The position numbers and the translations under genes are program-made. DNA of 37,753 nt from a virus: the IMG/VR virus record IMGVR_UViG_3300012346_000262, positions 1 through 37,753 of that record, one strand, 5' to 3'. Shown one piece after another: positions 871 to 37,214 of this stretch. The notes beneath the pieces were generated by a model. The model had not been told where the DNA came from. It ran no database searches and worked only from the letters and a program-made list of their open reading frames with translations. How positions within the stretch are numbered: the stretch's first letter is position 1; the number at the start of each line of letters is the position of its first letter.

Positions 871-937
871 TTAGTTTCTCCTATCGCCGCGACATTGCGG
901 CATGAATTAATTAGACAATAGTTTTATGATTATTGGC

Positions 938-952
938 ATAGGTGTTTTCCCT
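938..952 (-). promoter_or_regulatory. Copy 1 of the conserved motif AGGGWAAACACCTAT (gene direction), candidate phage promoter or operator upstream of the junction gene
   Basis: Minus strand reads CATAGGGAAAACACCTATGCCAATAATC. It overlaps the stop of ORF 951..1277 and lies 68 nt upstream of ATG 870. Confidence 0.5.
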
Positions 953-1277
953 ATGTTTTGAAAAGTGCTTTCAGTTTCTGCTGTATCTCTGGAGTCATAG
1001 GCTTGACCGTCTTTGCATCGCGCTCGATCTTTTCCAATGCCGGGTCTTTTGCATCTTTTGGCCTGTCTCTTTTTTGCTTAGGATAAAGGCTTTTCCAGTT
1101 GTTAATCGCTGCGTCTGTCAAAGCCTCGTTAATGTCCCATCCTTCACCGTAGAGCCTCATGCAACGCATAATCATCAGCTTTTGAGCTTGTTGCGTCATG
1201 GGGCTTTTGTTAGCTTTGCGGGCATCAACAAAAGCTGACCATATTTCGGGGTCTATGTAAGACGGTAGAGGTGTCAT
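951..1277 (-). CDS. hypothetical protein (108 aa)
   Basis: ATG overlaps the methyltransferase stop (ATGA). Co-directional with its neighbours; no family recognised. Confidence 0.6.
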   Translation of the reverse strand: MTPLPSYIDPEIWSAFVDARKANKSPMTQQAQKLMIMRCMRLYGEGWDINEALTDAAINNWKSLYPKQKRDRPKDAKDPALEKIERDAKTVKPMTPEIQQKLKALFKT

Positions 1278-3998: not shown

Positions 3999-4228
3999 TG
4001 CAATCTCCTATTGAAAATTGAATCTTGCCATTCTTTTTTCTTTTTTATATAGGTGTTTTCCCTATGTACTTTCTTTTTATCCACAGCTACCCAAGGTGAA
4101 CATTGTTCATCCGCTCCATTCATAATCTCATTGAAATATATGAACCAAGTGCCAAGAGGGGTTAAGTCATCTCGAAAGCTGCTAACGGGTTCACATATCA
4201 GCTTTCTGTCTGCAAGTCGCTCAACCAA
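3935..4228 (-). CDS. possible small ORF with TTG start (97 aa as drawn); the real extent is doubtful
   Basis: The TTG at 4228 follows GGAGCAAGCG. However, the frame runs through motif copy 2 and 64 nt into mazG. Confidence 0.25.
   Translation of the reverse strand: MVERLADRKLICEPVSSFRDDLTPLGTWFIYFNEIMNGADEQCSPWVAVDKKKVHRENTYIKKKKEWQDSIFNRRLQCNTKKWCSGYLSSPTIRQVD
4049..4063 (-). promoter_or_regulatory. Copy 2 of the conserved motif, upstream of the mazG-helicase-methylase operon
   Basis: Minus strand reads ACATAGGGAAAACACCTATATAAAAAAG, about 50 nt upstream of the mazG ATG. Confidence 0.55.
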
Positions 4229-4701
4229 CGCTTGCTCCAGTGTTAATCGGTTAGTCTTACCGTCTGGGTGTCATTCTTGAGTACGGGCGATTTCAACCCT
4301 ATTAGCTAACCCGCTCTGAGGGGTAAAGATTGTTTAGTAGTGGCGGCAGGACGGCCAGTCCCTGCAATATCACTGTTTGACGTGACCCACAAGCTGCGCC
4401 TCGTGTTTTACCACCGCCTAGACGCAGACTAACTATCCTCCCAAGGTCGTTAACCCTTGCATTTCGGCTGTTTGGTTGCCCGTTAGCTTGCGCTTTTACA
4501 ACCATTCACCACTACTAAACAATCTCAGCGGCCACAAAGCAAAAGCCCCACTAGGTGAACGGGCTAAGGCTTGGTTGCCACCTCGGAGCCGCAACGACGG
4601 ACATCCTAAGCTTTGTCAAACCCGCTCGCCTAGTGAGGCTTACGTATTCGCTTCGTTGAGCTACTACGGGTTACCAATCCGTAGATATTCGCATTATGCC
4701 A
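4229..4701 (-). ncRNA. Candidate structured non-coding RNA or long leader 'A'; core 4311-4531 is closed by a 16-bp perfect helix plus a 7-bp outer helix
   Basis: About 470 nt without a credible ORF in a tightly packed genome. GATTGTTTAGTAGTGG (4328-4343) is the exact reverse complement of CCACTACTAAACAATC (4509-4524). Outer pairing is 4311-4319 with 4525-4531. Internal hairpins include GCAGGAC-GGCCA-GTCCCTGC (4346-4365). Strand is assumed from the neighbouring genes. Confidence 0.45.
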
Positions 4702-4721
4702 TTATTTTTCAGGTGTCGCAA
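4693..4721 (-). promoter_or_regulatory. Sigma70-like promoter candidate (TTGCGA-17 nt-TGgCATAAT) pointing into region A
   Basis: Minus strand reads TTGCGA (4721-4716), a 17-nt spacer, then TGG CATAAT (4701-4693). It overlaps the 3' end of ORF 4702..4905. Confidence 0.35.
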
Positions 4722-4905
4722 TACCCTGCACAAATTTATTGCAATTCCTAAGCGCAATAACCCAAGCGCTCATTTTGTTAGACGGGTATTCCCTATGCGC
4801 GATGTATCTTTGGCAGGTTTCTCTTCGCTGGCAGTACTCAGGCTCAACGTCTGACCATATTTCACCATCACATCTCTGCGCATCTCTGGGTAAGTTGTGT
4901 GTCAT
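4702..4905 (-). CDS. hypothetical protein (67 aa)
   Basis: The internal ATG at 4905 follows GGAGAATGGAAA and overlaps the upstream stop (ATGA). Confidence 0.55.
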   Translation of the reverse strand: MTHNLPRDAQRCDGEIWSDVEPEYCQRRETCQRYIAHREYPSNKMSAWVIALRNCNKFVQGIATPEK

Positions 4906-5120
4906 TTTCCATTCTCCAATGAATATTCCGTAACCCTGCATTTCTCATCCCACCGATTACGAACTGTGACGTTCTTTGATGTGATCTTGTGGCCTTCGTT
5001 TTTTAAGTCCCAGATTCGAGCGGCTAGGCGTAATATGCCTAGATCGCGGATAGCCTCAAACTGGGTTAAAGGCAAGCCGGCTTGCAAGTGGTTTAGAACT
5101 CGTGCGTTTTGGGTTTTCAT
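4902..5120 (-). CDS. small helix-turn-helix/winged-helix DNA-binding protein (72 aa)
   Basis: 'LTQFEAIRDLGILRLAARIWDLKNEGHKI' resembles the short phage HTH family in which an 'ARI.DLR..G' helix is typical. Confidence 0.55.
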   Translation of the reverse strand: MKTQNARVLNHLQAGLPLTQFEAIRDLGILRLAARIWDLKNEGHKITSKNVTVRNRWDEKCRVTEYSLENGK

Positions 5121-6075: not shown

Positions 6076-6113
6076 GCGGAGAATTTAAGCATAGATTTTG
6101 CGGCTTGTGTACT

Positions 6114-6128
6114 AGGGTAAACACCTAT
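6114..6128 (+). promoter_or_regulatory. Copy 3 of the conserved motif, driving the rightward early operon
   Basis: TTGTGT ACTAGGGTAAACACCTATATAAAAG reads as a -35-like TTGTGT, a 17-nt spacer and TATAAA. It lies about 48 nt upstream of ATG 6182 in the divergent intergenic region. Confidence 0.6.
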
Positions 6129-6181
6129 ATAAAAGCGCTTTGCTTGGCTTTATAGTTACACCATCTTAACTAGGAGCAGCA

Positions 6182-6457
6182 ATGAAAAGCAATGACATTC
6201 CAATCACCCGCGCCGAAGAGGAACAGTTATACGGCGTACCAATCACTGAGCATGATATTCATTGTGCCGTGCGCGATCAGCTCCAAGCGCTTGATGCTGA
6301 TGATTGCGCAGAAGTGGCAAGCGAGTTTGGGAAAGAAATTTTGGCCGCGATGTGGAATAAAAAACAAGAAGATGTTGGCGTAATCATGTTTTGCGGCTTA
6401 CGCTCTCTTGCAGAGGCGCGGGCTTATCGTGTTTTAGGATTGAAGGTGAAAGCATGA
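6182..6457 (+). CDS. hypothetical protein (91 aa)
   Basis: Strong RBS CTAGGAGCAGCAATG; first gene of the rightward operon. Confidence 0.65.
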   Translation: MKSNDIPITRAEEEQLYGVPITEHDIHCAVRDQLQALDADDCAEVASEFGKEILAAMWNKKQEDVGVIMFCGLRSLAEARAYRVLGLKVKA

Positions 6458-6678
6458 GCGACAAAGACACAGGCGGTAGCGCTTTTCCTGTACAAGAAAT
6501 TCAAAGAATGGGTCTATCCATGCCTTCGCAACATGGTATGACACTGCGCGATTATTTTGCGGCTAAGGCGATGCAGGCGTTCTTGACAAGAGACCTTGAT
6601 GGAAATTGGAATTTTGCTGCACACGCATATGAGGCTTATCAAATGGCAGACGCAATGATTCAAGCGAGGAAAGCATGA
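6454..6678 (+). CDS. hypothetical protein (74 aa)
   Basis: ATG 6454 overlaps the upstream TGA (ATGA). Confidence 0.6.
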   Translation: MSDKDTGGSAFPVQEIQRMGLSMPSQHGMTLRDYFAAKAMQAFLTRDLDGNWNFAAHAYEAYQMADAMIQARKA

Positions 6679-7157
6679 AAGTACAAATAGACAAGTCGGT
6701 GATTGAGCGGGCGATTGATGCGATTGACCTTTTTAACGAAACCGCATACGGGCATTTTTTGGTTTACAGCGACGACATCGGCGCATTTAATGAAGTCGAG
6801 CACGACCTCCGCGCAGCACTTGCCGCACAAGAGCCAGCACAAGAAGCGATGCTGCACGATTACCCAATCCTCCAGCAGTTCCACACAAAACACGCGCTTA
6901 GCTCAATGAGAGCGCCTTCTTGTTTTTGCTGTGGAAAGCAAACAAGCGCAGCGCGTCCTGTTGCTGTGCAGCATTTAGAGCTTCCCGGCATAGTGATTTG
7001 CCAAGAGTGCAAAACAGCATCACAAGAGCCAGCACCAGCAAAGCCGCTGAGTAAGAAACAAATCAACGAGCTTGCTGGATTTGGCGTAGATTATTTTGAC
7101 CGCATGGATTTTGCCCGTGCAATCGAAGCCGCTCACGGAATTGTGGGGCAATCATGA
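6675..7157 (+). CDS. hypothetical Cys-rich protein (160 aa)
   Basis: ATGA-coupled. 'CFCCGK...CQEC' suggests a zinc ribbon. Confidence 0.6.
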   Translation: MKVQIDKSVIERAIDAIDLFNETAYGHFLVYSDDIGAFNEVEHDLRAALAAQEPAQEAMLHDYPILQQFHTKHALSSMRAPSCFCCGKQTSAARPVAVQHLELPGIVICQECKTASQEPAPAKPLSKKQINELAGFGVDYFDRMDFARAIEAAHGIVGQS

Positions 7158-7318
7158 GCGCCGCCGAACTCGAAGTAATCCTGGCAGTTGCCAAACGTGA
7201 GCAGCGCCGCGAGAAGATCGCACGTCGCGCACAGGCCGGTGCAGCCCTGGCTTTTGTCATTGTTCTATTCATCGGCTTTGTTGTCGCAATGCTTGATGTG
7301 TTGGTTTGGAGGGTGTGA
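7154..7318 (+). CDS. small membrane protein (54 aa; below the ORF-track cutoff)
   Basis: Hand translation: MSAAELEVILAVAKREQRREKIARRAQAGAALAFVIVLFIGFVVAMLDVLVWRV. ATGA-coupled at both ends. Confidence 0.5.
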   Translation: MSAAELEVILAVAKREQRREKIARRAQAGAALAFVIVLFIGFVVAMLDVLVWRV

Positions 7319-7518
7319 TGACCATTGAACTTGACCATCTTTTTGTTTTGGCTCTATTAACGACGCTGATCTTCATTGCAGCGCTGGGATTGTGGATTAC
7401 CGCGAAGCCGAAGAGAAAGCGCAGTAATTGGGCGCGTTTCAAAGACGCGATCTACTACTTTAGCGAATGCGGTCTTGACCTGCGCGAGTCTTTTGCGCGG
7501 GCTTGGAGAAGGCCATGA
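7318..7518 (+). CDS. small membrane protein (66 aa)
   Basis: Starts MTIELDHLFVLALLTTLIFIAALGLWI, with one predicted TM segment. Confidence 0.5.
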   Translation: MTIELDHLFVLALLTTLIFIAALGLWITAKPKRKRSNWARFKDAIYYFSECGLDLRESFARAWRRP

Positions 7519-7596
7519 GTGGCGCGGATTGGTGGCAGCAACAGCAGCAACTTGAACAGCAACAGTACGAAATTTATCAAAGCGAAGGAAAGCAAA

Positions 7597-8262
7597 ATGA
7601 GCATCACAACAATGATTTTGGGCGAGTCAGGGACAGGGAAGTCCACCAGCATGCGCAATCTGAATCCAGCCGATGTACTGCTGATTCAGGCGGTAGCAAA
7701 GCCTCTGCCATTCAAGGCCACGGGCTGGAAGCCTGCGACAAAAGAAAACCCTTCTGGCTCGATTGTGGTTTCTGACAACTCGCAAACCATCATCAAAATG
7801 ATGCAACGCACAGTTAAACCAATCATCATCATTGATGACTTTCAGTACACCATGAGCAATGAGTTTATGCGGCGCGTGACTGAGAAAACATCCGGCTCGG
7901 GCGCGTTTGATAAGTTCAACGAGATCGCATATTCTGCGTGGTCATTGCTTACCGAGTCCACCAAACTGGATCACCACAAGCGCGTTTACATCATGGGGCA
8001 TACATCCATTGATGAACACGGGAAAACCAAAGCAAAGACTATAGGAAAACTGCTAGACGACAAGATCACCATTGAGGGGCTTGTCACCATCGTATTACGC
8101 ACAGGCGTAACAAACGGCAGCTACTACTTTCGCACTCGCAATGACGGTGCAGACACTACCAAGACACCGTTGGATATGTTTGACGACGAGCAAATACCCA
8201 ACGACTTGGCCGCAGTAGATCAATCCATTTGCGATTACTACGAAATCAACCAACCAGCTTAA
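7597..8262 (+). CDS. P-loop NTPase, AAA_24/Sak4-like recombination ATPase (start alternatively GTG 7519)
   Basis: Walker A 'ILGESGTGKST' lies close to the N-terminus when the start is ATG 7597 (RBS GAAGGAAAGCAAAATG). Walker B-like 'IIIIDDF'. It sits directly upstream of the SSB-like gene, as in Sak4 modules. Confidence 0.55.
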   Translation: MSITTMILGESGTGKSTSMRNLNPADVLLIQAVAKPLPFKATGWKPATKENPSGSIVVSDNSQTIIKMMQRTVKPIIIIDDFQYTMSNEFMRRVTEKTSGSGAFDKFNEIAYSAWSLLTESTKLDHHKRVYIMGHTSIDEHGKTKAKTIGKLLDDKITIEGLVTIVLRTGVTNGSYYFRTRNDGADTTKTPLDMFDDEQIPNDLAAVDQSICDYYEINQPA

Positions 8263-8277
8263 CCAAAGGAAAAGCAA

Positions 8278-8904
8278 ATGTACACACTCGATACCAACCA
8301 AGCACGCAAAGCCGACACTGTTGGCGGCATGATTTCTGAAATAGGCCAGTACCCCGGCACGATTGAAGTAGCCTATGCGGTCAAAGCGCAAACTGGCGCA
8401 AAGGGCGTGGGGATTGTCTTCAAGTCTGCCAGCGGAGAGAAAGCGAAATTCACACTTTACACCCACAACAAAGACGGCGACAAGATCATGGGGTTTGATC
8501 AACTCATGGCATTGATGACAGTCGTAAAGGTGCGCGACATCAAGCCAGTGCAGGCCATGATCAAACAATGGGATTCTGAGCAACGAAAAGAGGTTGATGT
8601 AAAGGCTGACGTGTTCCCAGAACTGCAAGCAAAACCCTTGCAAGTTCTGTTTCAGACAGAAGAGTATGAAGCCAATGACCGAAGCATCAAAACCAAAGTT
8701 GCTCCGCGCTACTTTTTGAGCGCAGATGGATTTTCAGCGTCTGAGATTTTGGACAAAAAGACAGAGCCAAAGCACGGTGAACAAATGCGCAAGTCTTTGC
8801 GTCATCGCCCAATTAAGGGCAGCTCACATGCTGCGCCAGCACCAAAGGCAAGCGCAGGCGGTGGCAGCGGCTTTGACGACATGGACGACGACATCCCATT
8901 TTGA
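8278..8904 (+). CDS. single-stranded DNA-binding protein (DUF669-like body with a canonical SSB acidic tail)
   Basis: The C-terminus 'GGSGFDDMDDDIPF' matches the bacterial SSB tail ...DDDIPF. It sits next to the AAA_24-like ATPase. Confidence 0.65.
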   Translation: MYTLDTNQARKADTVGGMISEIGQYPGTIEVAYAVKAQTGAKGVGIVFKSASGEKAKFTLYTHNKDGDKIMGFDQLMALMTVVKVRDIKPVQAMIKQWDSEQRKEVDVKADVFPELQAKPLQVLFQTEEYEANDRSIKTKVAPRYFLSADGFSASEILDKKTEPKHGEQMRKSLRHRPIKGSSHAAPAPKASAGGGSGFDDMDDDIPF

Positions 8905-8909
8905 TTACC

Positions 8910-8928
8910 GGGGCTTCGCGCCCCATTT
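8910..8928 (+). terminator. weak hairpin (GGGGC-ttcgc-GCCCC) followed by ATTT; possible attenuator
   Basis: A 5-bp GC stem in the 35-nt gap after the SSB-like gene. The U-tract is poor. Confidence 0.3.
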
Positions 8929-8939
8929 GAAAGCACATT

Positions 8940-9680
8940 ATGAACGAATATCTAGACATCGAAACAATCCCAACCCAGCGCCCCGACATCATGGCCGAAA
9001 TCCGCGATTCATTGAAGGCTGATCTTGATGAAAAGATTGCCGCAATCGCGCCCCCTGGCACTTACAAAAAGCAGGAAACGATTGATGAATGGATGGCAAC
9101 CGAAGCCCCCAAAATCCGCGCCAAGCTCGAAAGCGAGTTCGAGACTACAGCAGATGAGGCATACCGCAAAACGGCGCTTGATGGCGCGTTTGGTCAAATC
9201 TGCGTCATTGGCTGGGCTGTGGATGATGATGCCGTTCAGCGTCATTACGTGCGTGACTTGTCACTTGAAGAAGAGGCCAATTTGTTGACCGCTTTTATGA
9301 AGTGGCACGACGAGTCAGACGCAATGATGACCACGGTTATCGGCCACCACGTATCAGGCTTTGATCTACGGCTCATTACTCAGCGCTGCATAGTGCATGG
9401 CATCAAGCCAGCAACTGTGATTTCTCGCGCAGCAGCAGCAAAGCCTTGGGAATCAGATCGCGTGTACGACACGATGATTCAATGGGCTGGCGTGGGCAAT
9501 CGAATCAGCCTAGACAAGCTGTGCAAGGCACTGGGCGTTGTTTCACCAAAAAATGACATCACAGGTAAGAACGTGTGGGATTACGTCAAGGCCGGGAAGA
9601 TCGCGGAAGTCGCTGATTACTGCGTAGGCGATGTTGAAGCCGTGCGCCGTGTTCACAAGCGCATGACGTATCGCGCTTGA
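8940..9680 (+). CDS. RNase H-fold 3'-5' exonuclease (PolB-exonuclease-like)
   Basis: Exo I 'YLDIET', Exo II 'GHHVSGFDLRLI' and Exo III 'YCVGDVEAV'. Confidence 0.7.
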   Translation: MNEYLDIETIPTQRPDIMAEIRDSLKADLDEKIAAIAPPGTYKKQETIDEWMATEAPKIRAKLESEFETTADEAYRKTALDGAFGQICVIGWAVDDDAVQRHYVRDLSLEEEANLLTAFMKWHDESDAMMTTVIGHHVSGFDLRLITQRCIVHGIKPATVISRAAAAKPWESDRVYDTMIQWAGVGNRISLDKLCKALGVVSPKNDITGKNVWDYVKAGKIAEVADYCVGDVEAVRRVHKRMTYRA

Positions 9681-10165
9681 CAAACCGAAGGCAGAAACAT
9701 CATGGGCATGAAATACAAAGTCTATTACGCCAAGCTCCGCAAAACCAGCTAGCTAGTCGATCCACGCAACCCAGACAGCCCGCATTACCACGCTGTAGAG
9801 CTTGTATTTGTGGGAATGTCAAATTCAATGGCAGAGGCAAAGCTGATGACGGCTGTGCCAGTTTTGGAGATGGTGAAATGAACTTTGTGCATAGAGACAG
9901 CAGCTTTCCCCTGCCTCAAGACGTGACACACATCAAGGCTGCAAAAATAGACAAAAAAGCTAGGCAAGGTTCTGGCGCTCCGTCTTTTTGCTGGATATGC
10001 GGTAAGCAGCTTATGAGAGCACCCGGCAAAGGAAAAGGCTTGTTCTTTTTTGACATCGTAATAGGTCGAGGCGATGATGAGCAACACCGAGTGCATAGAA
10101 CTCAATGCCTGCGCGTTGCATTAGATGATGGGAACAAATACTTACCACAGGAGCAATCAAAATGA
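9677..10165 (+). CDS. hypothetical Cys-rich protein (162 aa from TTG 9677, or 95 aa from ATG 9878)
   Basis: The frame is open from a TTG that overlaps the upstream TGA. A better RBS (GGAGATGGTGAAATG) precedes ATG 9878. Contains a 'CWICGK...H..C' motif. Confidence 0.45.
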   Translation: MTNRRQKHHGHEIQSLLRQAPQNQLASRSTQPRQPALPRCRACICGNVKFNGRGKADDGCASFGDGEMNFVHRDSSFPLPQDVTHIKAAKIDKKARQGSGAPSFCWICGKQLMRAPGKGKGLFFFDIVIGRGDDEQHRVHRTQCLRVALDDGNKYLPQEQSK

Positions 10166-10371
10166 GCCAAGAAGAACTAATGCTTGTTGACCCGGCGACT
10201 GGCTCTGAAAAACCATACCCAAGTCACGCAGAACAGTGGCGCAAATATCACGGCAAAACCGCATGGCTATTTAACCCGTGGACTGGAACTCGCAGGTGTG
10301 CCCAAGATGTTGGAACCGACACGTTTGGGCAACTAATCCAGCGCGAAGATTTTGTAAAGGCATCAAAATGA
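10162..10371 (+). CDS. hypothetical protein (69 aa)
   Basis: RBS ACAGGAGCAATCAAAATG; ATGA-coupled. Confidence 0.6.
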   Translation: MSQEELMLVDPATGSEKPYPSHAEQWRKYHGKTAWLFNPWTGTRRCAQDVGTDTFGQLIQREDFVKASK

Positions 10372-10748
10372 GCAAAGAGCTAAAACACGCCGATGTGATC
10401 ATCCATATGGCAAAACATGGGTTTGAGAGTGTGCAGAGCCGATGCTCCGATGATGATTTTTGGCAAGATGCAAGTGCGTCATGCAACCCAACGCGATTCC
10501 CACATTACGAATGGCGCATCAAACCCGCAACAATCACTTACACAGTGACAGTGCCAGAGCCTATGAGGGTGATGCCGAACAATGGCGATGCGTATTGGTG
10601 TGTTGATTTTGATGGCGCATGGGAAGTGACTTGTGATTTAAGCGAGTTTGATCAAAAAGCGGTTGAGCGGGGCAACATCTGGGACACCGAATCCAAAGCA
10701 CAGCAAGCATTTGATGCGCTGTTTGGGCCATTGAGGGCAGTGAAATGA
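10368..10748 (+). CDS. hypothetical protein (126 aa)
   Basis: ATG 10368 overlaps the upstream stop. Confidence 0.6.
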   Translation: MSKELKHADVIIHMAKHGFESVQSRCSDDDFWQDASASCNPTRFPHYEWRIKPATITYTVTVPEPMRVMPNNGDAYWCVDFDGAWEVTCDLSEFDQKAVERGNIWDTESKAQQAFDALFGPLRAVK

Positions 10749-11140
10749 ACAAAATGACAAACTCAGAAGCCCGTCAGATACTGATTGATCACAACGCATG
10801 GCGGCACAGCAATAAAGCAGATTACTTACACAGCGCAAGTGCTGTTAATCTTGCCATTGATGCCGCCATTGTCGCGCTAGGCGATAACGATATGCTGTCA
10901 GTGTATCTGTTAGGCTATTTCGATGGCAAGCGCTCTAAATCATCCATTGCTCAGGCTATACGTGATGCAGCGGTGAATTGGCCTCAAAATATAGCTTTTG
11001 TAGAGCATGGAATCCTTGACGCTTTTCAAGAATGGGATGCACCGCACTGGTGGACAACGCTTATCAATAATCCAGATATTCAAGCCAAAAATCAAGCCCG
11101 CACATTTATGCTACTGGTAGCGGAGGCGTTAGAGTCATGA
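10745..11140 (+). CDS. hypothetical protein (131 aa)
   Basis: ATGA-coupled ORF. Confidence 0.6.
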   Translation: MNKMTNSEARQILIDHNAWRHSNKADYLHSASAVNLAIDAAIVALGDNDMLSVYLLGYFDGKRSKSSIAQAIRDAAVNWPQNIAFVEHGILDAFQEWDAPHWWTTLINNPDIQAKNQARTFMLLVAEALES

Positions 11141-11412
11141 AGCCGCATTTAAGGCGTGAGTGGTCTAACCTATTTAAGCGCTACATGTGGTTTTGTCGCG
11201 GCGATGGCGCAATGGGGTATGGTGATGACGTTAAAGTAGCGTATTTTGATTGGAAATACGCGCTAAAAAAGCTCATTTCGGCCAAGACTCTATCAGCGCC
11301 TCACGCTTTGACCGCTCACACCCATAAGCGCCAATCCATGCTACAGCCCACAATGCAAGATCACGCGCAGTTGACTCGGAAGGCAGATCAGCCGGTACAG
11401 GGCACTTTGTAA
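11137..11412 (+). CDS. hypothetical protein (91 aa); its 3' 140 nt overlap the convergent o-spanin gene
   Basis: ATGA-coupled start. The C-terminal part may be a fortuitous open frame. Confidence 0.45.
   Translation: MKPHLRREWSNLFKRYMWFCRGDGAMGYGDDVKVAYFDWKYALKKLISAKTLSAPHALTAHTHKRQSMLQPTMQDHAQLTRKADQPVQGTL
11239..11261 (-). terminator. 8-bp hairpin (GCGTATTT-7 nt-AAATACGC) 12 nt downstream of the o-spanin stop; possible end of the late transcript
   Basis: Perfect inverted repeat. The following U-tract is weak (UACUUUAA) and the hairpin lies inside + ORF 11137..11412. Confidence 0.3.
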
Positions 11413-11521
11413 CGAGTGCCACCGGAGGCGGGTCAATCTTCGCGGGCTGTGCTGGCGGCTTTGTTGAGCAACCCAATATCCCCAGCGTCAAGCCGACAAC
11501 TAACAAGGTTTGTGCTTTCAT
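11273..11521 (-). CDS. o-spanin (Rz1-like outer-membrane lipoprotein)
   Basis: Signal sequence and lipobox 'LTLGILGC', with a Pro-rich mature part. The start is embedded in the 3' end of the i-spanin gene. Confidence 0.8.
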   Translation of the reverse strand: MKAQTLLVVGLTLGILGCSTKPPAQPAKIDPPPVALVTKCPVPADLPSESTARDLALWAVAWIGAYGCERSKREALIESWPK

Positions 11522-11768
11522 TGGCTAGCTCCTTTTCAGTGATGGTTAGAAACTCAGTTCGCACGGTTTCGCGGTCTACGTAGCGAATCTCCGCTTTCCT
11601 CGTTGTGTCGCGGTTTGCGTCTTGCTGTGCCCTTGCTAGTCGTGCTGATTCTGCGCGGTCTAGCTCCCATTCTTTTGTTATCGTGGCTTTGCCGGATGTA
11701 TAGGCTTTCCAATGGCTAGCCGCCAATGCTAGGGCAATGATTAGCGCGGCTACGATGCGGAGATTCAT
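11433..11768 (-). CDS. i-spanin (Rz-like)
   Basis: N-terminal TM 'IVAALIIALALAAS', then a charged coiled-coil region. Lies directly after the endolysin gene. Confidence 0.75.
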   Translation of the reverse strand: MNLRIVAALIIALALAASHWKAYTSGKATITKEWELDRAESARLARAQQDANRDTTRKAEIRYVDRETVRTEFLTITEKELANESTNLVSCRLDAGDIGLLNKAASTARED

Positions 11769-12373
11769 CCTAGCGCATCCCCCGCTTTGTCTGTTAGTGC
11801 AATCCTGTGATCTAGGCCGATTGTGCCGCCGTTCACTCTTTTAGACACGCGAACAGTATCGCCCATCATCGCGTCAGGTACTTTTTGCTCCCACCACGCA
11901 ATAGCTGATTTAAGCGCCCATTCAGGCTGTGCGAGTAAATCAGGATCGGTTACTAGGTCAATCCCAAGGGCATCGCCCACGGCTTGATAATTGTCTTTTC
12001 CTGTCACTTGGATAAGCCCGCGCCCGCGATATTTCCAACCATCGCCAAACTCAGTATTACCTAAGCGTCCGTTATATACCTTGTTGGCAATCCTAACTGG
12101 TTGTCGTTCTAGCTCTTTTGCTGAGTCGTTGTTAAACCGTGTTGGCCAAGTCCGAAGCAATGCCGCCGCGCTGTAATTGAGATTCTCTTCAACGTGTTCG
12201 AGCAATCCTGATTCATGCAAGATTTGCCCCAAAAAGTCGTCAATTTCAGAAGCGCCCGCGCTAAATGCTGAGTCTGTTACGTGTGCGCTGAAATGCTCTG
12301 CCCATCTTGCAGCGGTTAGAGGGCGAACGCCGCATTGAATTAGGATATCGTTCCATTGGCTGGGGGTTTTCAT
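11765..12373 (-). CDS. endolysin, glycoside hydrolase family 19 (chitinase-like)
   Basis: 'FLGQILHESGLLEHVEENLNYS' and 'YRGRGLIQVTGKDNY' match GH19 signature motifs. Confidence 0.85.
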   Translation of the reverse strand: MKTPSQWNDILIQCGVRPLTAARWAEHFSAHVTDSAFSAGASEIDDFLGQILHESGLLEHVEENLNYSAAALLRTWPTRFNNDSAKELERQPVRIANKVYNGRLGNTEFGDGWKYRGRGLIQVTGKDNYQAVGDALGIDLVTDPDLLAQPEWALKSAIAWWEQKVPDAMMGDTVRVSKRVNGGTIGLDHRIALTDKAGDALG

Positions 12374-13488
12374 GGTAGCGCTTGTCCGTTTCTTTCAAGG
12401 ATTCTTAGCAATCGTTCGTTGCCGGGAAATACGACAAAATTAGAAGTTCCTTTGCCAGCATTACGTGAGCCTTCGTCTAAATAGCGAATACCGGGAATGC
12501 CGCTATTACGCAACATTTCAGAAAAAGCCGCTGGTTCTGTTTTGCCAAAATTTGTCATTGCATGATGCAAGTCACCGCCTTTTGGAACTACGCCAACATC
12601 CCTGCCCTCGCGCCATGCGTTAATTATTCCAGATGCTTTTGACCCCGGAGCCGTTTTAATATCTGCGCTTCTTGCTATGTTTTGTATAGCGCCTGATTGC
12701 TGAGACAAAGGTAATTCCCAATCAAGCATTCTTGCTATTTGATCGTCTGGGAGGTCTACTTTGTAGAGAGAGCCTTTGCCTTTATCAAAGCTTGCCTTTT
12801 CGCTTATTTTTTGAATATCTGACCACGCTTTTTTTGTTTCTGCATATGTGGCATCAGCGGCACGCATTCTGTCCTTATATTGCCTAAGGTTTTTCAAATA
12901 CACCAATTCAAGTTCGCTCGCGGGCTTTATTTCACTTAGCGGCAAGCCATTAAACCTAAAAGAACTCTCACCAATAATATCATCAGCGTAACTCTTTGCC
13001 ACATCCGGCGATTCAGCCAAATACAAACCATGTCCGTAAGCCTGCGCACCTTCACCCGTTCCAATCTTGCTTGCATCGAACTTGTCAAATTTATGCGGTG
13101 AGCCGTGCCACACAATAGCGCCGGTTTGCGGGTTCATTGTGCGTGGTGCAGCCGCATTCTCCCCCATCTGACGCAATCCCTTAGCCACAGCCGCCGCGCC
13201 TTGCTGAGTGCCCGCCATCGGAGCAAGTAGCCCCAAAGTCTCGCCGGCCACCTTGGGAAGTCCATCCGGCACATCGGCCAACAATCCCGCTTGTCTAGCC
13301 CACTCAGAGCCGCCTAGAGCGTTCTCAGGTACTGGGATTCTCGCTCTACGTAGTAACCACGCAATCGCGTCAACAGGAGCCGTTACAGAGCTTGCAGCGG
13401 TATTGCTCATGCTCTGCCCTAGCTGGCCTGCGTTCGTGCCAAGATCGCGCCTAAATTGCGGGTCGCGGAATGCTTCAAGTAGTCCCAT
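12370..13488 (-). CDS. 372-aa protein with a PARP-like (H-Y-x) ADP-ribosyltransferase signature
   Basis: 'VWHGSPHKFDKFDASKIGTGEGAQAYGHGLYLAESPDVAKSYA' parallels PARP1 'LWHGSR..NF..I...G...(n)..GYMFGKGIYFAD..SKSANY'. The late strand 'SNFVVFP' aligns with PARP 'YNEYIVY'. RBS GAGGGTTAAAAATG. Confidence 0.5.
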   Translation of the reverse strand: MGLLEAFRDPQFRRDLGTNAGQLGQSMSNTAASSVTAPVDAIAWLLRRARIPVPENALGGSEWARQAGLLADVPDGLPKVAGETLGLLAPMAGTQQGAAAVAKGLRQMGENAAAPRTMNPQTGAIVWHGSPHKFDKFDASKIGTGEGAQAYGHGLYLAESPDVAKSYADDIIGESSFRFNGLPLSEIKPASELELVYLKNLRQYKDRMRAADATYAETKKAWSDIQKISEKASFDKGKGSLYKVDLPDDQIARMLDWELPLSQQSGAIQNIARSADIKTAPGSKASGIINAWREGRDVGVVPKGGDLHHAMTNFGKTEPAAFSEMLRNSGIPGIRYLDEGSRNAGKGTSNFVVFPGNERLLRILERNGQALP

Positions 13489-13753
13489 TTTTAACCCTCG
13501 CGTATTTCATGAATGTTGCGAATGAATAAAGAGCAATCGAAAGCGCTTCTAAGGCAAGCCCTGATATTTGAGCAATCCCGAAGATGTATATTTGAAGTGT
13601 AACGACAAACCCACCGAAAGCAACTAGACACAATGAAAAGCATTGAAACATCGTATCTTTGAAGCGGTCAGAGATAAGACCAATAATAGCCATAGCCGAT
13701 GTAAGGCCAGAGCTTGCCAAGATAATCCAGCAGAAAAAGTCAATATCGCTCAT
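13475..13753 (-). CDS. membrane protein, 3 predicted TM segments (holin/antiholin candidate, 92 aa)
   Basis: ATG 13753 overlaps the upstream stop. Hydrophobic segments 'FFCWIILASSGLTSAMAIIGLI', 'CFSLCLVAFGGFVVTLQIYIF' and 'GLALEALSIALYSF'. Confidence 0.5.
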   Translation of the reverse strand: MSDIDFFCWIILASSGLTSAMAIIGLISDRFKDTMFQCFSLCLVAFGGFVVTLQIYIFGIAQISGLALEALSIALYSFATFMKYARVKNGTT

Positions 13754-14064
13754 TTGACCCCCAACCACAAACGCACTTTAGCCACAAACGCACTCGCTAA
13801 GTCTTTTGTATCAATACTTGAAATGCCTTCAAATATCTTGCGTATGAACAACATCGAAAGTAAACCAACTACGAAAGCCGTAGCGTTTTCATACTTTAAC
13901 AACCGAAAATAATCAACCACAGGCGCAGTGAATAGCTGAGAACACACAACGCCACCCACGCCCGAAACAAACCTATCCCAGCCCGTTGTTTTTGCAAGCC
14001 AGACACCTAGAGCAGATCCAGATGCACCAGCGGCTAGTTTATGCAAGAATTCGCCTTCTATCAT
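13750..14064 (-). CDS. putative holin (104 aa, multi-TM)
   Basis: Hydrophobic segments with a charged C-terminus. First gene after the tail fibre gene, upstream of the endolysin and spanins. Confidence 0.5.
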   Translation of the reverse strand: MIEGEFLHKLAAGASGSALGVWLAKTTGWDRFVSGVGGVVCSQLFTAPVVDYFRLLKYENATAFVVGLLSMLFIRKIFEGISSIDTKDLASAFVAKVRLWLGVK

Positions 14065-14067
14065 TGG

Positions 14068-15366
14068 TTACTCCCATGCAACCACAATTGAGCCAGCATC
14101 AAAAGCGTCTGTACCAGCAACTGTTGTAATTGAAATTCTGTCAAGCGTTGCGCTCAGTGTTTTTCGTCCAGTGCCAAGCACAAAATTAGTGTTGTTGATG
14201 TCGCCCTGAAACGTCATTAGCCAAGTATGTGAAGTGTTAACCCTTGAAAAAATAACTGCGCCCGATAAAACATCACTTGCTGCCCAACTTCCAGTTAAAC
14301 CAAAACCAGTCGTCTGCTGAATGTTCAGCACGTCAACAGTAAGACCTAGCGAGGTATATCCAGACGCTTCAATGCCGCCAGAATCTCCTAATTGGACAAT
14401 CGGTAAAGATGTGCCGTTTGTTGACACGCCACTAAGGAACAAAGACACGCGCTTTGCAGCAGCAGGAATCGAAGTAGTCAGCGATACGCTAGTTCCACTC
14501 GTTGTCGCTACGGAACTATTTAGCGTGATGTTTTCATGAACGTGATCTTGACGAGCATATCTAAGCGAAGTACCTACGGCAGCAGTGCCGTTATCTAGCG
14601 GGTTTGTGTTTGCTGGCAAAAGGCCAGCCGGTGAATATGCCAGCACTTCTACCGTGTTTGATGCAGTGGCACGTAAGATGCAAGTATCACCCGCAGCCGT
14701 TGTGATCGTCGCGCCGGTTTGCGTGATGATTGCAGCGTTATTTGTGAGATTCAGTGCAGCATTAAAACGAACAAAATAGCACAGCCCAGCCACTACGGTG
14801 AAGCCATCTATCTGAGTCGTTCCAGTGATGTTGATATGACGAGTATTCGGAGCGCCCGACGTAAGGTTTACAGTTGTCGCGCTTGCAACATCAATTCTCG
14901 TAGTGTTCAAAAAGTCAGTTGCTGAGACTAAGGCTTGACCACTTGCACGGATATAGCTAATCACCGCCCAGCCTGAGCCGGACTGAGCAGGCACAGCGAT
15001 AGCGGTATCGTTTGCAGCCGTGGTGATGTTTGCAGCCGTTGGGAGTATCAGGCTTGATGCGTTGTGAGTTAGCGTCAGAATGCCGCCGAATCGCAGGAAA
15101 CGCACTCCGGTGTAATTTGTACCAAAACCGGTGATTGTCGTTGTACCTGAGATTTCAACGAATGGCGAATTTTGAGCGCCGATGTCTGTAGTTGTCGCAG
15201 AGGCTAGGGATACGGGGGTTGACGTTCCCTTGCCATCCCGAAGGAGTGCGATAAACGAGGCGTGAGCACGTTGCACGTTGTCTAAATCAGATGGCGAATC
15301 AGTGCCAGCCGGGTAATTGCTTGAGGCTGTCTGTGATAGGTCGGTTATGGCTGTTGGCACTGGCAT
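14068..15366 (-). CDS. tail fibre / receptor-binding protein (432 aa)
   Basis: N-terminus 'ITDLSQTASSNYPAGTDSPSDLDNVQRAHASFIALLRDG' is typical of phage tail-fibre N-termini. Thr/Ala/Asn-rich beta-type sequence with an internal duplication. Confidence 0.65.
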   Translation of the reverse strand: MPVPTAITDLSQTASSNYPAGTDSPSDLDNVQRAHASFIALLRDGKGTSTPVSLASATTTDIGAQNSPFVEISGTTTITGFGTNYTGVRFLRFGGILTLTHNASSLILPTAANITTAANDTAIAVPAQSGSGWAVISYIRASGQALVSATDFLNTTRIDVASATTVNLTSGAPNTRHINITGTTQIDGFTVVAGLCYFVRFNAALNLTNNAAIITQTGATITTAAGDTCILRATASNTVEVLAYSPAGLLPANTNPLDNGTAAVGTSLRYARQDHVHENITLNSSVATTSGTSVSLTTSIPAAAKRVSLFLSGVSTNGTSLPIVQLGDSGGIEASGYTSLGLTVDVLNIQQTTGFGLTGSWAASDVLSGAVIFSRVNTSHTWLMTFQGDINNTNFVLGTGRKTLSATLDRISITTVAGTDAFDAGSIVVAWE

Positions 15367-15452
15367 GATGTTTCCCTTAGAATGTGGTGATGGATAAACC
15401 GATAATCATTGGCTGGCTTTTGTCTTTGATTATTCTTTGGATAATTGACTAT

Positions 15453-17582
15453 TTATGGCGCAGAAAGTAGCCCGCCAGCCGCAGCAGCAGGCAACAAAAA
15501 CGGCTGATACATCGGCAATTTAGGTTGCTCTCTTAACAATCCGGGCATGATGTTTTGCGCTGCCCTTGTATTGATTGAAGTCGTGATATTTGATAATGGG
15601 TCAAGGATTGCAGCTTTTCCAAAAGGCAATTTACCCGCCAAGCCTTGCAAAGCATCAAACCCAAGCCCCGCAACCATTGCGCCGCTGTTTGAGTTGTTAA
15701 CAGCAGAACCCACAGGCTGAGATTGCATCAAAGACGCAACACGGCCATTTAATCGAAGCGCTCTTAGCTCTTCTGGCGAAAAAATGATAGATAGTTTTCT
15801 TTCCCCGATTGAATCCAAAGCGCTGTTAAACGCCGATTGACTGAATTTGCCAACTTCGTCGCTTGAACGATTCAGCGCCTTGGTTTTCAAGTGAGATAGA
15901 ACGGCATTTTTTACCTGAGCCGCGCCTTGTGGCCCAACTTGGTTAAGCACGTCAGCCGCCTCCCTAGCTGTGCCGCCAACGATAAACCTATTCGCAATCC
16001 GTTGCGGGTCGCTCATCGCACCTTCTGAAAGAACGGAGCGGACTAGCGGGCTAGAATCCTCATAGCCGTATGCTGTAGCCGTGGCCTGCCTTGCCCTATT
16101 GATTGCATCAATTGAGCTATCTACAGCGTTATCCGTGGCTCGCATGCCTGCCGCTGTTCCTTGAGTCACCAAAGAGCCAGCGGGCGCAGCAAATCCAGCG
16201 GGTGCAAGGTCGGCCTCCATCAAAACACGACGCGCTAAAGCCGCCGCAGCAGCCTCGTTTCCACCTTTTGATGCTTCTTTTGAAAGCATAGACATCAGGT
16301 TTTTGTATGCCTGTGGTGTAAATGGTGCGCCATTCTGAAAAGCATCAATGTATTTGCTTACGCCGGGACTCATGAAAGGCATAAGCCCTTCTTCATCCAG
16401 CGCGGCATTCACACGGCTAAGAACACCCGCCGATATTTGCTGCTTGTAACCGGGTGATGTTTTTGCGGCTTCCCATGCGGTGCGTTCTGCGTTTCTTAAT
16501 CCTGCTTGGTTTCTCAAAATTGAATTTGCAACAGTTTCACCAGCCCTTAGCGGGTTTCCTTGATTAGCACCAAGCTGATTCATGTTTTGAATCAATCTTG
16601 CATTGTTTTGATTTTGAATCAACGCAAGCCCTTGTAATCCTTCATCGGATGTGTTTGCGCCCATCTTAGCAAGATTCATCTCTTTTGTAATCTGCACTGG
16701 ATTTTGGGAAACCATGCCACGAGTCGGAGTTATGCCAGCCTCTTGGAAAGCCGCTAACCTAGACAGCGCAGCAGGGTCAATTTCTCGATTAGTGTTCAAT
16801 GCGCCTTGCAGTTGGCCGCGAAGTGATTGCTTAACCCTTTCAGGCATTTCGTCGTAATCAACCCCTGATTGTCTAAGTAAGCCGCTAATCCTGATATCCA
16901 TTTGCTGTGGGGTCATGCCACGCCCAAGCATCTGTTTTCCTAAGTTCGTAGCGCCTTGGCCAAAAGCCATTGCACCGCTTGTGGCTAGACCGCCACCAAC
17001 ACCGCCAAGCAAAGCGGATAAACCTTGCTGCAAATCAGTTCCACCGGCTTCGCGTGACGAACCACCAGCCAAGCCAGCACCAGCCGCCGCGCCACTTTGC
17101 TGTGCAGGGTTTGCCGCCAAGAATGAAAGCGTTTTAGCCGCTACAGGCTCTGCGTATTGCGATAGCTTTTGAGCGCCGCCGCCTAATGCCATAGCACCTG
17201 ATACCATTTTTGAGGCATCGCCTATGACACGTTCGTTTGAGCCTTGCGGAGTTGGTAGCCCTAAAGTATTTGCAAGATCAGAAGCAATCCGGCCAGCGCT
17301 TTTTGTTTTGCCTACACTTCCTGTAAGCCTATCAGTTACATATCTAAATGGCTCGCTGAGAATCTCCGCGCTTTGCCCTAAACCTTCAATGCCATACCTA
17401 GCCGTTAAGCCAAGCTGCCGCCCAATGTCGTTAACCATGCTACCGGCTTTGACAGATGCTGGCTTTGCTTCTTGTGTTTTTCTAGCCGCGACGATTGCAT
17501 CAGCCAGTTGACGCGCAGCATCAACATCCCCCGCTTTATCGGCATTGATTAACGCATCTTGCATCTGTTCTATGGTTGCCAT
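15453..17582 (-). CDS. large Gly/Ala/Gln-rich internal virion (ejection) protein, positional analogue of P22 gp16
   Basis: 709 aa of low-complexity sequence. Its position at the end of the ejection-protein series is the basis; no enzymatic motif recognised. Confidence 0.5.
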   Translation of the reverse strand: MATIEQMQDALINADKAGDVDAARQLADAIVAARKTQEAKPASVKAGSMVNDIGRQLGLTARYGIEGLGQSAEILSEPFRYVTDRLTGSVGKTKSAGRIASDLANTLGLPTPQGSNERVIGDASKMVSGAMALGGGAQKLSQYAEPVAAKTLSFLAANPAQQSGAAAGAGLAGGSSREAGGTDLQQGLSALLGGVGGGLATSGAMAFGQGATNLGKQMLGRGMTPQQMDIRISGLLRQSGVDYDEMPERVKQSLRGQLQGALNTNREIDPAALSRLAAFQEAGITPTRGMVSQNPVQITKEMNLAKMGANTSDEGLQGLALIQNQNNARLIQNMNQLGANQGNPLRAGETVANSILRNQAGLRNAERTAWEAAKTSPGYKQQISAGVLSRVNAALDEEGLMPFMSPGVSKYIDAFQNGAPFTPQAYKNLMSMLSKEASKGGNEAAAAALARRVLMEADLAPAGFAAPAGSLVTQGTAAGMRATDNAVDSSIDAINRARQATATAYGYEDSSPLVRSVLSEGAMSDPQRIANRFIVGGTAREAADVLNQVGPQGAAQVKNAVLSHLKTKALNRSSDEVGKFSQSAFNSALDSIGERKLSIIFSPEELRALRLNGRVASLMQSQPVGSAVNNSNSGAMVAGLGFDALQGLAGKLPFGKAAILDPLSNITTSINTRAAQNIMPGLLREQPKLPMYQPFLLPAAAAGGLLSAP

Positions 17583-18856: not shown

Positions 18857-18857
18857 G

Positions 18858-19310
18858 TTAGCCCCTATCATCGCGGTGGAATTGATACAAGTCGCTAAAA
18901 GTCTGCGGAGCTGCTGCTTGTGGCGTTGCTTGCATCGCGGGTTGTTGTGAAACCGGCGTTTGAAAACCACCCATCGCATATGTCTGAGGTTTGAAGCCAC
19001 CAAAGCTCATTGCCTTTGGTCTTTGAAGCGGGTTTGTGCGGTCAAACGTGCCAGAGTTCAATCCTGCCAGCAACTGAGGCAACATAGACCGATACGCATC
19101 GCTCATGCCGAATGCGTTGCTATAGGCATTCTGTTGTTGTTGGCTGAATGGGTTAGTCATGTACCTGTTTTGCAGTTCTTGACCTTGCGTGATGTTGTTT
19201 TGCATCCAAGGTTGCGCGGGAGCCCACGGAGATCGCTCCGCTGTCTGTGAAGAGCCTCCACCATCATCACCAAGCAAACCACCAATTAATGCGCCGCCGA
19301 GTTGTTCCAT
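18858..19310 (-). CDS. Gln/Pro-rich virion protein (150 aa), positional analogue of P22 gp7
   Basis: Operon context and composition only. Confidence 0.45.
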   Translation of the reverse strand: MEQLGGALIGGLLGDDGGGSSQTAERSPWAPAQPWMQNNITQGQELQNRYMTNPFSQQQQNAYSNAFGMSDAYRSMLPQLLAGLNSGTFDRTNPLQRPKAMSFGGFKPQTYAMGGFQTPVSQQPAMQATPQAAAPQTFSDLYQFHRDDRG

Positions 19311-30763: not shown

Positions 30764-30778
30764 AGGGTAAACACCTAT
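30764..30778 (+). promoter_or_regulatory. Copy 4 of the conserved motif, oriented antisense to the flanking terL and portal genes
   Basis: + strand reads CACAGGGTAAACACCTATGGACATTATACG in the 70-nt terL-portal gap. On the minus strand a TATAAT hexamer lies just upstream of it. Confidence 0.4.
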
Positions 30779-30794
30779 GGACATTATACGCAAT

Positions 30795-33474: not shown

Positions 33475-33533
33475 ATTTACTCCTAGTTGCGTTGTTGATG
33501 CCTCAATTATCATCCTGTCCAACACACTTTTAT

Positions 33534-37207: not shown

Positions 37208-37214
37208 GATTGAT

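Follow-up and report, generated by a model that had tools for sequence, protein, structure and literature searches.

The stretch of viral DNA that we analysed (37,753 nt, here called the window) begins and ends with the same 23 nt and has a 24-nt tandem repeat spanning both ends, and is therefore taken to be a circularly assembled contig of ~37.7 kb. Its structural genes (P22 coat, P22-type portal, Sf6-type small terminase and large terminase) are those of a P22-like podovirus; INPHARED gave no megablast match to the window. Transcription runs leftward over almost the whole circle (from 6075 through 1 and 37730 to 11433), and a single rightward operon (6182-11583) carries Sak4, SSB and an exonuclease. 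When 60 ORFs, among them all those over 220 aa, were searched against PHROGs and Pfam, there was no match to an RNA polymerase, a sigma factor, MotA/AsiA, a repressor, an integrase or an excisionase, which bears out the statement in a preliminary description of this DNA that no RNA polymerase or sigma factor gene is recognisable. The window has one winged-helix protein (HTH_39, 4902-5120), the protein at 12370-13488 has a weak ADP-ribosyltransferase-like domain that falls below Pfam's cut-off, and three large proteins without matches (432, 473 and 709 aa) sit in the tail/injection module.

Placed around this circle are six exact copies of the 15-mer AGGGWAAACACCTAT, of which 100 dinucleotide-preserving shuffles of the window produced none. 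Exact matching returned the same six positions and strands that the preliminary description had reported, and these are given below with the promoter parts predicted around them.

Site 1 promoter, 910-953, minus strand: 15-mer at 938-952, element T-AGGGAAAACACCTAT at 953-938, poor -35 TGCCAA at 938-933, predicted -10 TCTAAT at 915-910.
Site 2 promoter, 4021-4064, minus strand: 15-mer at 4049-4063, element T-AGGGAAAACACCTAT at 4064-4049, -35 position TATAAA at 4049-4044, weak predicted -10 AAGATT at 4026-4021.
Site 3 promoter, 6113-6156, plus strand: 15-mer at 6114-6128, element T-AGGGTAAACACCTAT at 6113-6128, -35 position TATAAA at 6128-6133, predicted -10 TATAGT at 6151-6156.
Site 4, 30764-30783, plus strand: 15-mer at 30764-30778, between terL (stop 30795) and portal (ATG 30724) and antisense to both.
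Site 5 promoter, 33506-33549, minus strand: 15-mer at 33534-33548, element A-AGGGTAAACACCTAT at 33549-33534, -35 position TATAAA at 33534-33529, predicted -10 GATAAT at 33511-33506.
Site 6 promoter, 37188-37230, minus strand: 15-mer at 37215-37229, element T-AGGGTAAACACCTAT at 37230-37215, predicted -10 AACAAT at 37193-37188.

Sites 1, 2, 5 and 6 share the direction of the leftward arm on which they are placed, and site 3 heads the rightward operon (ATG 6182), for which it is the sole promoter candidate. Five of the six copies, as had been described, thus face the gene that follows on their own strand; a TAGGAG ribosome-binding site is present at four of these five genes. Site 1 precedes a gene that starts at 870, crosses the contig junction and encodes 354 aa on the circle; the TAG stop codon of the ORF at 951-1277 falls within the element here. 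Behind site 2 come mazG (ATG 3998), a helicase, a methyltransferase and an O-like gene; behind site 5 come small ORFs (ATG 33473) followed by terS and terL; and site 6 is inside the early small-gene arm, directly after a terminator-like hairpin (37281-37263). The copy at 30764 (site 4) faces against terL and away from portal; it is followed by a -35-like TGGACA (30778-30783), and no acceptable -10 is found on either strand. On the minus strand at site 4 a simple scan flags a weak terminator-like hairpin with a T-rich tail.

The family is all-or-none in the window, since relaxing the search to three mismatches added a single site (30970-30984, within terL), about the number expected by chance (~1.1); a looser family pattern likewise found only two further matches, both within genes and near chance level. 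The presence of six perfect sites with no degenerate ones is odd for transcription-factor sites, and is more typical of polymerase-level recognition. The 5' flank, given earlier as AC(T/A), holds only approximately, the actual trinucleotides being CAT, CAT, ACT, CAC, CTA and ACT; on the 3' side ATAAAA follows three of the copies and ATCAAT, GCCAAT and GGACAT the others, and the extended forms CCTATATAAAA (sites 2, 3 and 5) and CCTATATCAA (site 6) were found as described. A "split copy" proposed at 4704-4730 does exist, on the minus strand, and does not have the layout of the family, so that we do not count it as a member: its AGGGTA adjoins an ordinary sigma-70-like promoter (TTGCGA-17-CATAAT) with an upstream TG.

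At three of the sites a hexamer matching TATAAT at 5/6 positions (TCTAAT at site 1, TATAGT at site 3, GATAAT at site 5) begins at motif index 38, that is, 22 nt past the motif, and the AACAAT of site 6 begins one base earlier, at index 37 (21 nt past the motif). By our estimate a 5/6 match at one fixed index has a chance of ~0.5%, so that three among six sites are far beyond what chance would give. The hexamers at the -35 position are poor (TATAAA three times, TGCCAA and TATCAA; 2-3/6 at five sites), and a simple sigma-70 scan called none of the six promoters, because their -35 hexamers fall below its threshold. The sequence TATATAAAA, proposed earlier as the -10, in fact occupies the -35 position, and does so as a poor -35.

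Beyond the window, over 240 viral or metagenomic contigs contain the 15-mer. The layout around it is best judged from a scan of 2.9 million viral contigs for the bare 15-mer, which returned at least 120 loci and is unbiased in this respect, no spacing having been imposed; the scans of species genomes and of metagenomes required the -10 spacing beforehand, and their matches cannot prove the layout. (The metagenome scan also gave at least 120 loci, almost all in phage-like contigs of 34-67% G+C.) Nearly all matches of the bare 15-mer among the viral loci listed are intergenic. In 68 of 108 non-redundant copies a ribosome-binding site and ORF start follow on the same strand at a distance of 15-150 nt (median 67 nt), with a divergent start upstream in 18 of the 108 and a position within a long open frame in 13. 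Layout statistics were taken over 113-121 non-redundant copies among the viral matches listed. The base at -1 is T in 68% of these; indices 15-20 spell T(T/G/A)(G/C)A(A/C)(A/T), which resembles a TTGACA -35 and uses the motif's final T as its first base; and A39, A41 and T43 are enriched, giving a TAnAAT-like hexamer that begins 22-23 nt past the motif. Of 20 start positions tested, index 37 or 38 gave the best TATAAT-like hexamer in 64 of the 121 copies. Apart from the -35-like hexamer, information content is at background right past index 15, and the bases that follow the motif are not kept as TATAAAA but are TTGACA, TCCA or others in other copies.

With a -35 whose first base is the motif's final T, and a -10 another 22-23 nt away, the block spans approximately -50 to -36, counted from the predicted -10. 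The independent copies and the window agree in placing it upstream of the -35, and not, as had been proposed, in the -35/spacer region itself. A leftward promoter using the TTTACC of the motif's reverse complement was also considered and rejected, there being no matching upstream -10 signal across the copies. The preliminary view of the motif as a directional, promoter-associated element ahead of transcription units thus stands; the label "phage-specific" does not, given the same 15-mer in the other contigs mentioned above and in chromosomal promoters of Burkholderiales/Comamonadaceae.

The motif with its frequent T at -1 reads TAGG-N7-CCTA, and its near-copies indicate that this symmetry belongs to the element. 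The motif-bearing loci (1.6 Mb) contain 32, 48 and 144 near-copies with one, two and three mismatches, for an expected ~0.1. Among 68 non-redundant variants that keep the -10 spacing, A1, G2-G4, C11, A14 and T15 are almost invariant and positions 5-10 variable, with C at position 10 in 41 of the 68. Arms kept around a variable centre lead to a family consensus that is a 15-bp dyad, TAGGG-TAAA(C/T)-CCCTA, centred on index 7 (~-43), of which the allele in the window, T-AGGG-(T/A)AAAC-ACCT-A, has one imperfect arm. The wider family is TAGGG-N5-CCCTA and AGGG-W4-CCCT; a 12-bp palindrome of the latter kind, AGGGTTTACCCT or AGGGTAAACCCT, occurs 53 times in the motif-bearing loci (by our estimate ~0.3 expected), and in one of them (L071) it stands at the motif's place before TTGACA. 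The closest relative of the window over terL-portal (L121, 77% nucleotide identity) has two palindromic copies of AGGGTTTACCCT in place of the motif at the spot of site 4; there a TAGAAT lies at the family distance on the portal strand, and the tandem copies reach into the -35/spacer region. Site 4 may accordingly be a binding site without a promoter of its own, or may serve portal, as the arrangement in L121 suggests.

The dyad is not a terminator, a hairpin or a known RNA: its stems are only 3-6 bp around a 7-nt loop (-2.8 to -7.5 kcal/mol, with four of seven folds no better than shuffles), the bases that follow it in the sense orientation are AUAUAAAA with no U tract, and Rfam gave no match for the element. 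To our knowledge the 15-mer fits none of the consensus sites of CRP, FNR, Fis, IHF, Lrp, OxyR, NarL, BvgA, RcsB, MarA, PhoB or LuxR, and literature searches by motif, by reverse complement, by the palindromes and by topic turned up nothing relevant.

The element is also found in bacterial chromosomes. The pattern T + motif + N22-23 + ANANT, run against one genome for each of 185,579 species, gave 31 matches where by our estimate ~17 were expected; 12-13 of the 31 are in Burkholderiales (Rhodoferax, Undibacterium, Comamonadaceae, Alcaligenaceae), three of these resembling phage DNA and nine being chromosomal, in contexts of 54-68% G+C. The nine chromosomal matches precede the following genes.

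lutA (lutABC, lactate utilisation): four matches.
TRAP DctP-type binding protein: two matches.
PuuD-like gene: one match.
Gentisate-dioxygenase-like gene: one match.
Gene without assigned product: one match.

The lutA matches have a divergent GntR/FCD regulator and a ATTGGTnnnACCA box after the -10. Since the scan had pre-selected the spacing, further orthologous promoters were gathered through protein identity. In six distinct lutA promoters whose flanks have diverged, AGGG stands 13-14 nt before the -35 and the -10 begins at index 37 or 38; the alleles of the element are AGGGTAAACACCT, AGGGAAAACACCT, AGGGTTTACCCTT, AGGGTTAATACTA, AGGGTTTTCCCTA and GGGGTTTTCCCTA, so that 4-nt and 5-nt spacers both occur in orthologous promoters. 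The -35 hexamers of the host lutA promoters score 2-5/6, and all six promoters have a repressor-type box of the LldR/PdhR type downstream of the -10. Similarly, an orthologue of the dctP gene (78% protein identity) retains AGGGAAAACACCGAT and a TACATT at index 38, the rest having diverged; at more distant lutA and dctP loci, where gene order is different, the element is absent. This footprinting of lutA and dctP, with diverged flanks on either side, shows that the same element is present and selectively maintained in these host promoters, and the interchange of the lutA alleles at the same place makes the motif of the window and the palindrome alleles of one element. Exact copies are rare (~9 chromosomal in the 185,579 species genomes), so that the host regulon is drawn from few promoters, and exact-match searching favours one allele.

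The six repeats mark predicted promoters of the phage, lying just ahead of promoters of ordinary host type. Given its recurrence in hundreds of other phage contigs and before lactate and dicarboxylate genes of Comamonadaceae-type bacteria, the element is most likely the docking site of a host transcription activator and not a phage-specific promoter. That it is specifically a class-II-type site for a host factor, used by five of the phage's promoters, is a reading to which we give an even chance. Class II activators such as CRP and FNR bind at sigma-70 promoters of E. coli at sites centred near -41.5. Relative to the predicted -10, the centre of the element falls at ~-43 and its end adjoins a weak -35, and the sigma-70-type -10 at fixed distance is found in the 64 of 121 viral copies given above, being weak at site 2 of the window and lacking at site 4. 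Each copy would then be the upstream half of a sigma-70-type promoter abutting a weak -35; a dimeric, host-encoded DNA-binding protein would sit on the dyad at ~-43, contact the host RNA polymerase so as to recruit or stabilise it, and offset the poor -35 in class II manner. Such a site would stand ahead of five units (the rightward recombination operon, the mazG-helicase operon, the junction gene, the early small genes and the terS-terL group), and in this way the host polymerase would serve a phage without a recognisable RNA polymerase or sigma factor of its own. We infer the start sites, the binding of a protein, its host origin and its activating role, and the host of the window; activation in particular is suggested by the position upstream of the -35 and by the weakness of the -35 hexamers. 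A conserved host protein is the simplest reading for the binder, and the host is probably a betaproteobacterium of the Burkholderiales/Comamonadaceae type.

A more ambitious version of the host-activator reading, which we advance tentatively and would not expect to hold in full, is that the element is the consensus site of a hitherto undescribed global activator of aquatic Burkholderiales (Comamonadaceae-type), a CRP-like co-activator of carbon-catabolic operons, and that most operons in a very large, mosaic population of the phages of these bacteria (34-67% G+C, with gene architectures of many kinds) have been wired to it. The label "aquatic" or "freshwater" comes from the titles and sources of related records and not from curated metadata.

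The strongest competitor, though in our judgement an unlikely one, is a regulator encoded by the phage itself, such as the winged-helix protein at 4902-5120 or an unrecognised small protein, with matched alleles of protein and site in each phage. The different allele at the same spot in L121 (the two copies of AGGGTTTACCCT) is of a kind usual for phage immunity and regulator specificities and could reflect co-evolving phage regulators, and all-or-none, perfect sites suggest a dedicated partner of high specificity. Winged-helix proteins are also at hand: several kinds (clusters c6 and c30) are encoded near the motif in other phages, besides the HTH_39 protein of the window. No protein family tracks the motif, however. 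Homologues of the 4902-5120 protein, which had been put forward as an example for EMSA, occur in just 4 of the 120 listed motif-bearing loci, none of the window's proteins has homologues in more than nine of them, and all-against-all clustering of 2,181 ORFs yielded no universal DNA-binding protein; the genes flanking site 3 were singletons in this clustering. The motif loci are partial (~+/-7 kb), which weakens the co-occurrence test, but even so a universal partner should be met about as often as the terminase. The commonest clusters in the listed loci are the large terminase, an O-like/DUF1376 replication protein (the window's homologue of which is only of C-terminal fragment size) and a Sak recombinase. 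The retention of the element in chromosomal lutABC and dctP promoters, and the occurrence of the exact 15-mer in phages of 34-67% G+C with unrelated gene sets, likewise speak against a phage regulator. If the binder were nevertheless phage-encoded, the element would be a more ordinary family of phage operators, and the copies in host promoters would then be the puzzle.

A second alternative, which we consider improbable, does away with a separate factor altogether: the host RNA polymerase would read the element directly, as an UP-like element of unusual sequence specificity, recognised by the alpha C-terminal domain, or through some other contact. In E. coli the proximal UP subsite lies at ~-46 to -38. 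The element covers this region, its sites are all-or-none and perfect, its distance to the -35 is rigid, with AGGG beginning 14 nt ahead of it in phage and host promoters, and its A/T-only centre, in which any W4 is tolerated, fits minor-groove reading; given the overlap with the proximal subsite, a polymerase contact is possible. UP elements, lying at -40 to -60, are A/T-rich and asymmetric, however, and here the invariant arms (AGGG and CC-TA) are G/C-rich and dyad-symmetric, with A/T only in the centre. Direct reading also fits poorly with the nine host matches, which lie at regulated catabolic operons with local repressor boxes and before no other kind of gene, and with the many Burkholderiales phages that do without the element. 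Among complete phages it is absent from Rhodoferax phage P26218, EBPR podovirus 1, two Manatee Spring genomes and Methylophilales phage Venkman, and phage DSL-LC05 has one chance-level match and no element. Two of the complete phages that lack the element come from hosts in culture, a Rhodoferax (P26218) and a Methylophilales strain. The absence of the element from several complete phages counts against the host-activator reading as well.

Repression is less likely than activation, and a repressor site, of host or phage, that silences phage operons under some condition (compare the asymmetric stoperators of mycobacteriophage L5 and the LexA boxes of phages) seems to us quite improbable. The single orientation relative to transcription at 5/6 sites, the intergenic location within long transcription arms, where the element takes in the stop codons of upstream genes, and the extension of the tandem palindromes of L121 into the -35/spacer region would suit a repressor. 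A site that ends at -36 is ill-placed to block polymerase, however; the weak -35 hexamers of the window and of host lutA argue for dependence on a helper; the window has no recognisable repressor or integrase; and a repressor-type box is already present past the -10 of the lutA promoters. The option raised earlier of a common operator overlapping host-type promoters came closest among the earlier proposals, except that the element adjoins the core promoter without overlapping it and fits an activator better than a repressor.

Least probable is the original proposal that the block is the -35/spacer region of a promoter with TATATAAAA as its -10, read by a phage-encoded or phage-modified specificity factor of the T4 MotA or T7 type: an identical ~17-bp block does stand ahead of operons, with TATATAAAA next to it at three sites and TATATC at one, and the ADP-ribosyltransferase-like domain of 12370-13488 (below Pfam's cut-off) could in principle modify polymerase, but the positions after the motif are conserved only as a -35-like hexamer, the conserved -10 is 22-23 nt downstream, the 60 ORFs scanned yielded no domain of RNA polymerase, sigma, MotA or AsiA, and the element occurs in host promoters as well.

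Among known systems the element most resembles the class II sites of CRP and FNR, in that a dyad abuts or overlaps a weak -35 at a fixed spacing to the -10, and ahead of carbon-catabolic operons; the host lutA promoters, with a local repressor box downstream of the -10, recall in addition the arrangement of lac. It differs from the CRP and FNR sites in sequence, being unrelated to TGTGA-N6-TCACA or TTGAT-N4-ATCAA, and in geometry, being shorter (14-15 bp, arms TAGGG/CCCTA, with 4-nt and 5-nt spacers) and centred at ~-43 to -43.5. Phages have activators of their own that act from ~-42 to -43.5, namely lambda cI at OR2 for PRM and Mu Mor at Pm, and a predicted dimer site near -43 beside a poor -35 in a phage genome is like these. 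Lambda cI and Mor, however, are products of the phage itself, and each works at one or a few promoters in a single phage, whereas the element stands at nearly every operon, in hundreds of unrelated phage contigs and in host promoters.

An identical block of more than 15 bp ahead of transcription units is likewise a feature of T7-type promoters and of the MotA promoters of T4, the latter also with a poor -35. The T7 promoter extends to +6, and the MotA box lies at ~-30 in place of the -35. In the window the start-site region is not conserved and no single-subunit RNA polymerase was found among the 60 ORFs scanned, in contrast to T7; and unlike the MotA box, the block ends 22 nt before the -10, with neither MotA nor AsiA found. 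One operator repeated across a mobile genome is known from the L5 stoperators and from the KorA and KorB operators of IncP, which resemble the sites described here in being many, identical, short, intergenic and mostly in one orientation. Each of those operators binds a repressor encoded by the same mobile genome and acts negatively, and in this they differ from the window, in which no repressor, integrase or excisionase family was found; the occurrence of the 15-mer in host chromosomal promoters is a further difference. Upstream, activator-type sites of sigma-70 promoters are a known kind of element; what stands out here is how broadly the element is spread over phages and that it occurs in host catabolic promoters too.

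If the host-activator reading is correct, it provides a testable cis-element (a 15-bp dyad at ~-43) for uncultured betaproteobacteria of aquatic habitats and for their phages, on which hardly any experimental genetics exists, and the predicted host regulator could be caught with a simple DNA bait such as ACTAGGGTAAACACCTATA. A phage without a recognisable polymerase or sigma factor would have set one host-factor site before five units, coupling infection to the physiology of the host; were the factor a global activator, phage gene expression would be tied to the metabolic state of the host. The element would also serve as a marker linking metagenomic phage contigs to a host group, and would be a candidate joint for mosaic recombination.

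Relatives of the portal (40 loci) and of Sak4 (6 loci) have, with one exception, no copy at up to two mismatches, so that neither the structural module nor Sak4 carries the motif along. In comparisons with metagenomic relatives, motif plus promoter behaves as a cassette at module boundaries, and the 15-19 bp block, which sits at mosaic joints, may be a crossover point for the exchange of modules between phages. In this it is like the PeSL cassettes of T4-like phages and the linkers of lambdoid phages, where a cassette is kept between flanks of which one or both are unrelated; it is unlike them in that no defining stem-loop is required, and a role in recombination is suggested here only by the limits of homology. 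At site 5 the cassette of motif, TATAAA, GATAAT and ribosome-binding site is base-for-base identical in two metagenomic relatives (L279 and L243), with unrelated DNA ahead of the motif and different genes past the cassette, and at site 6 homology with L279 starts exactly at the 5' edge of the motif.

The cassette, that is, the 15-mer element together with its predicted -35/-10 promoter, fits tightly between neighbouring genes. Of the four leftward internal sites, three have the upstream gene's stop codon within the element or overlapping it, an arrangement that is also common in other phage contigs. Their places relative to the motif (index counted from the motif start) are:

951-953, upstream stop TAG, motif index -1 to 2
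33548-33550, upstream stop TAA, motif index -2 to 1
37223-37225, upstream stop TAA, motif index 5 to 7

Site 6 (37215-37229, minus strand) is preceded, at a distance of 34 nt, by another feature, which falls within the predicted ORF 37223-37405:

37263-37281, minus strand, terminator-like hairpin, GGCGCAAAGGATGTGCGCC then TTTTGTTGTG

Unless this predicted ORF is spurious, the terminator falls within a coding region; the succession of terminator and promoter at this place would signal a true operon boundary.

Just past the predicted -10 and near the start site, the CA-rich word (CA)TCAACA occurs about five times as often as expected (18 of 113 copies, at motif index 44-66 over many loci, vs 3.3). 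In the window it is represented at site 5 (33534-33548, minus strand), where GGCATCAACAAC (33500-33494) comes after the predicted -10 GATAAT (33511-33506). The word may represent a start-site or leader feature conserved within the cassette.

The preliminary description had also read a degenerate, “split” copy of the motif at 4704-4730, but this sequence is better described as an ordinary promoter, which is located within the 3' end of ORF 4702-4941 and could drive ORF 4302-4505:

4693-4721, minus strand, sigma-70-like promoter, TTGCGA-17-CATAAT with TG upstream

A 12-bp palindromic variant of the element, AGGGTTTACCCT, is common in motif-bearing phage loci, among them:

L107, 9203-9322 and about 8100-13770
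L251
L071
L092

L107 carries four copies in an array with 36-bp spacing that looks like origin iterons; the palindrome also forms the tip of long perfect hairpins (e.g., CCGAATAAGGGTTAACCCTTATTCGG), and some phages hold at least 10 copies within a few kb.

In the host lutA promoters (L172, L174, L186, L190, L319, L327, L345, and L356), an ATTGGT-N3-ACCA(AT) box directly follows the -10 in every case, often with a second such box near the divergent GntR/FCD gene. The box fits the PdhR/LldR operator type, and the lutA promoter would then be under both the upstream element and a lactate-responsive repressor acting locally.

Several other products of the window deserve mention, in addition to a MazG pyrophosphatase and a DNA methyltransferase:

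12370-13488, minus strand, 372-aa protein with a weak ADP-ribosyltransferase domain match
14068-19003, minus strand, three large neighbouring proteins (432, 709, and 473 aa) of the tail/injection region
22016-22648 and 22651-23298, minus strand, two neighbouring paralogous SU10-type adaptor proteins
34178-34399, Lar-like restriction-alleviation protein

The match of the 372-aa protein is to ART-PolyVal (28.5 bits, below the 31.2 cut-off). Since ADP-ribosyltransferase-type enzymes of T4 modify host RNA polymerase, this protein could bear on promoter use. The three large proteins had no match whatever in PHROGs or Pfam.

The ends of the contig overlap, the last 23 nt being identical to the first 23 nt (1-71 and 37656-37753 region), and a 24-nt tandem repeat of about seven copies (8 aa per unit, e.g., TMTGGNYA or TMTGGDSA) runs across them; its copy number may have been collapsed in assembly. 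Once the overlap is removed, one ORF spans the ends:

870 to 1 and 37730 to 37536, minus strand, junction gene, 354 aa

ORF 37536-37730 is the C-terminus of this gene, whose product combines DUF7666 with a tail of glycine-rich repeats.
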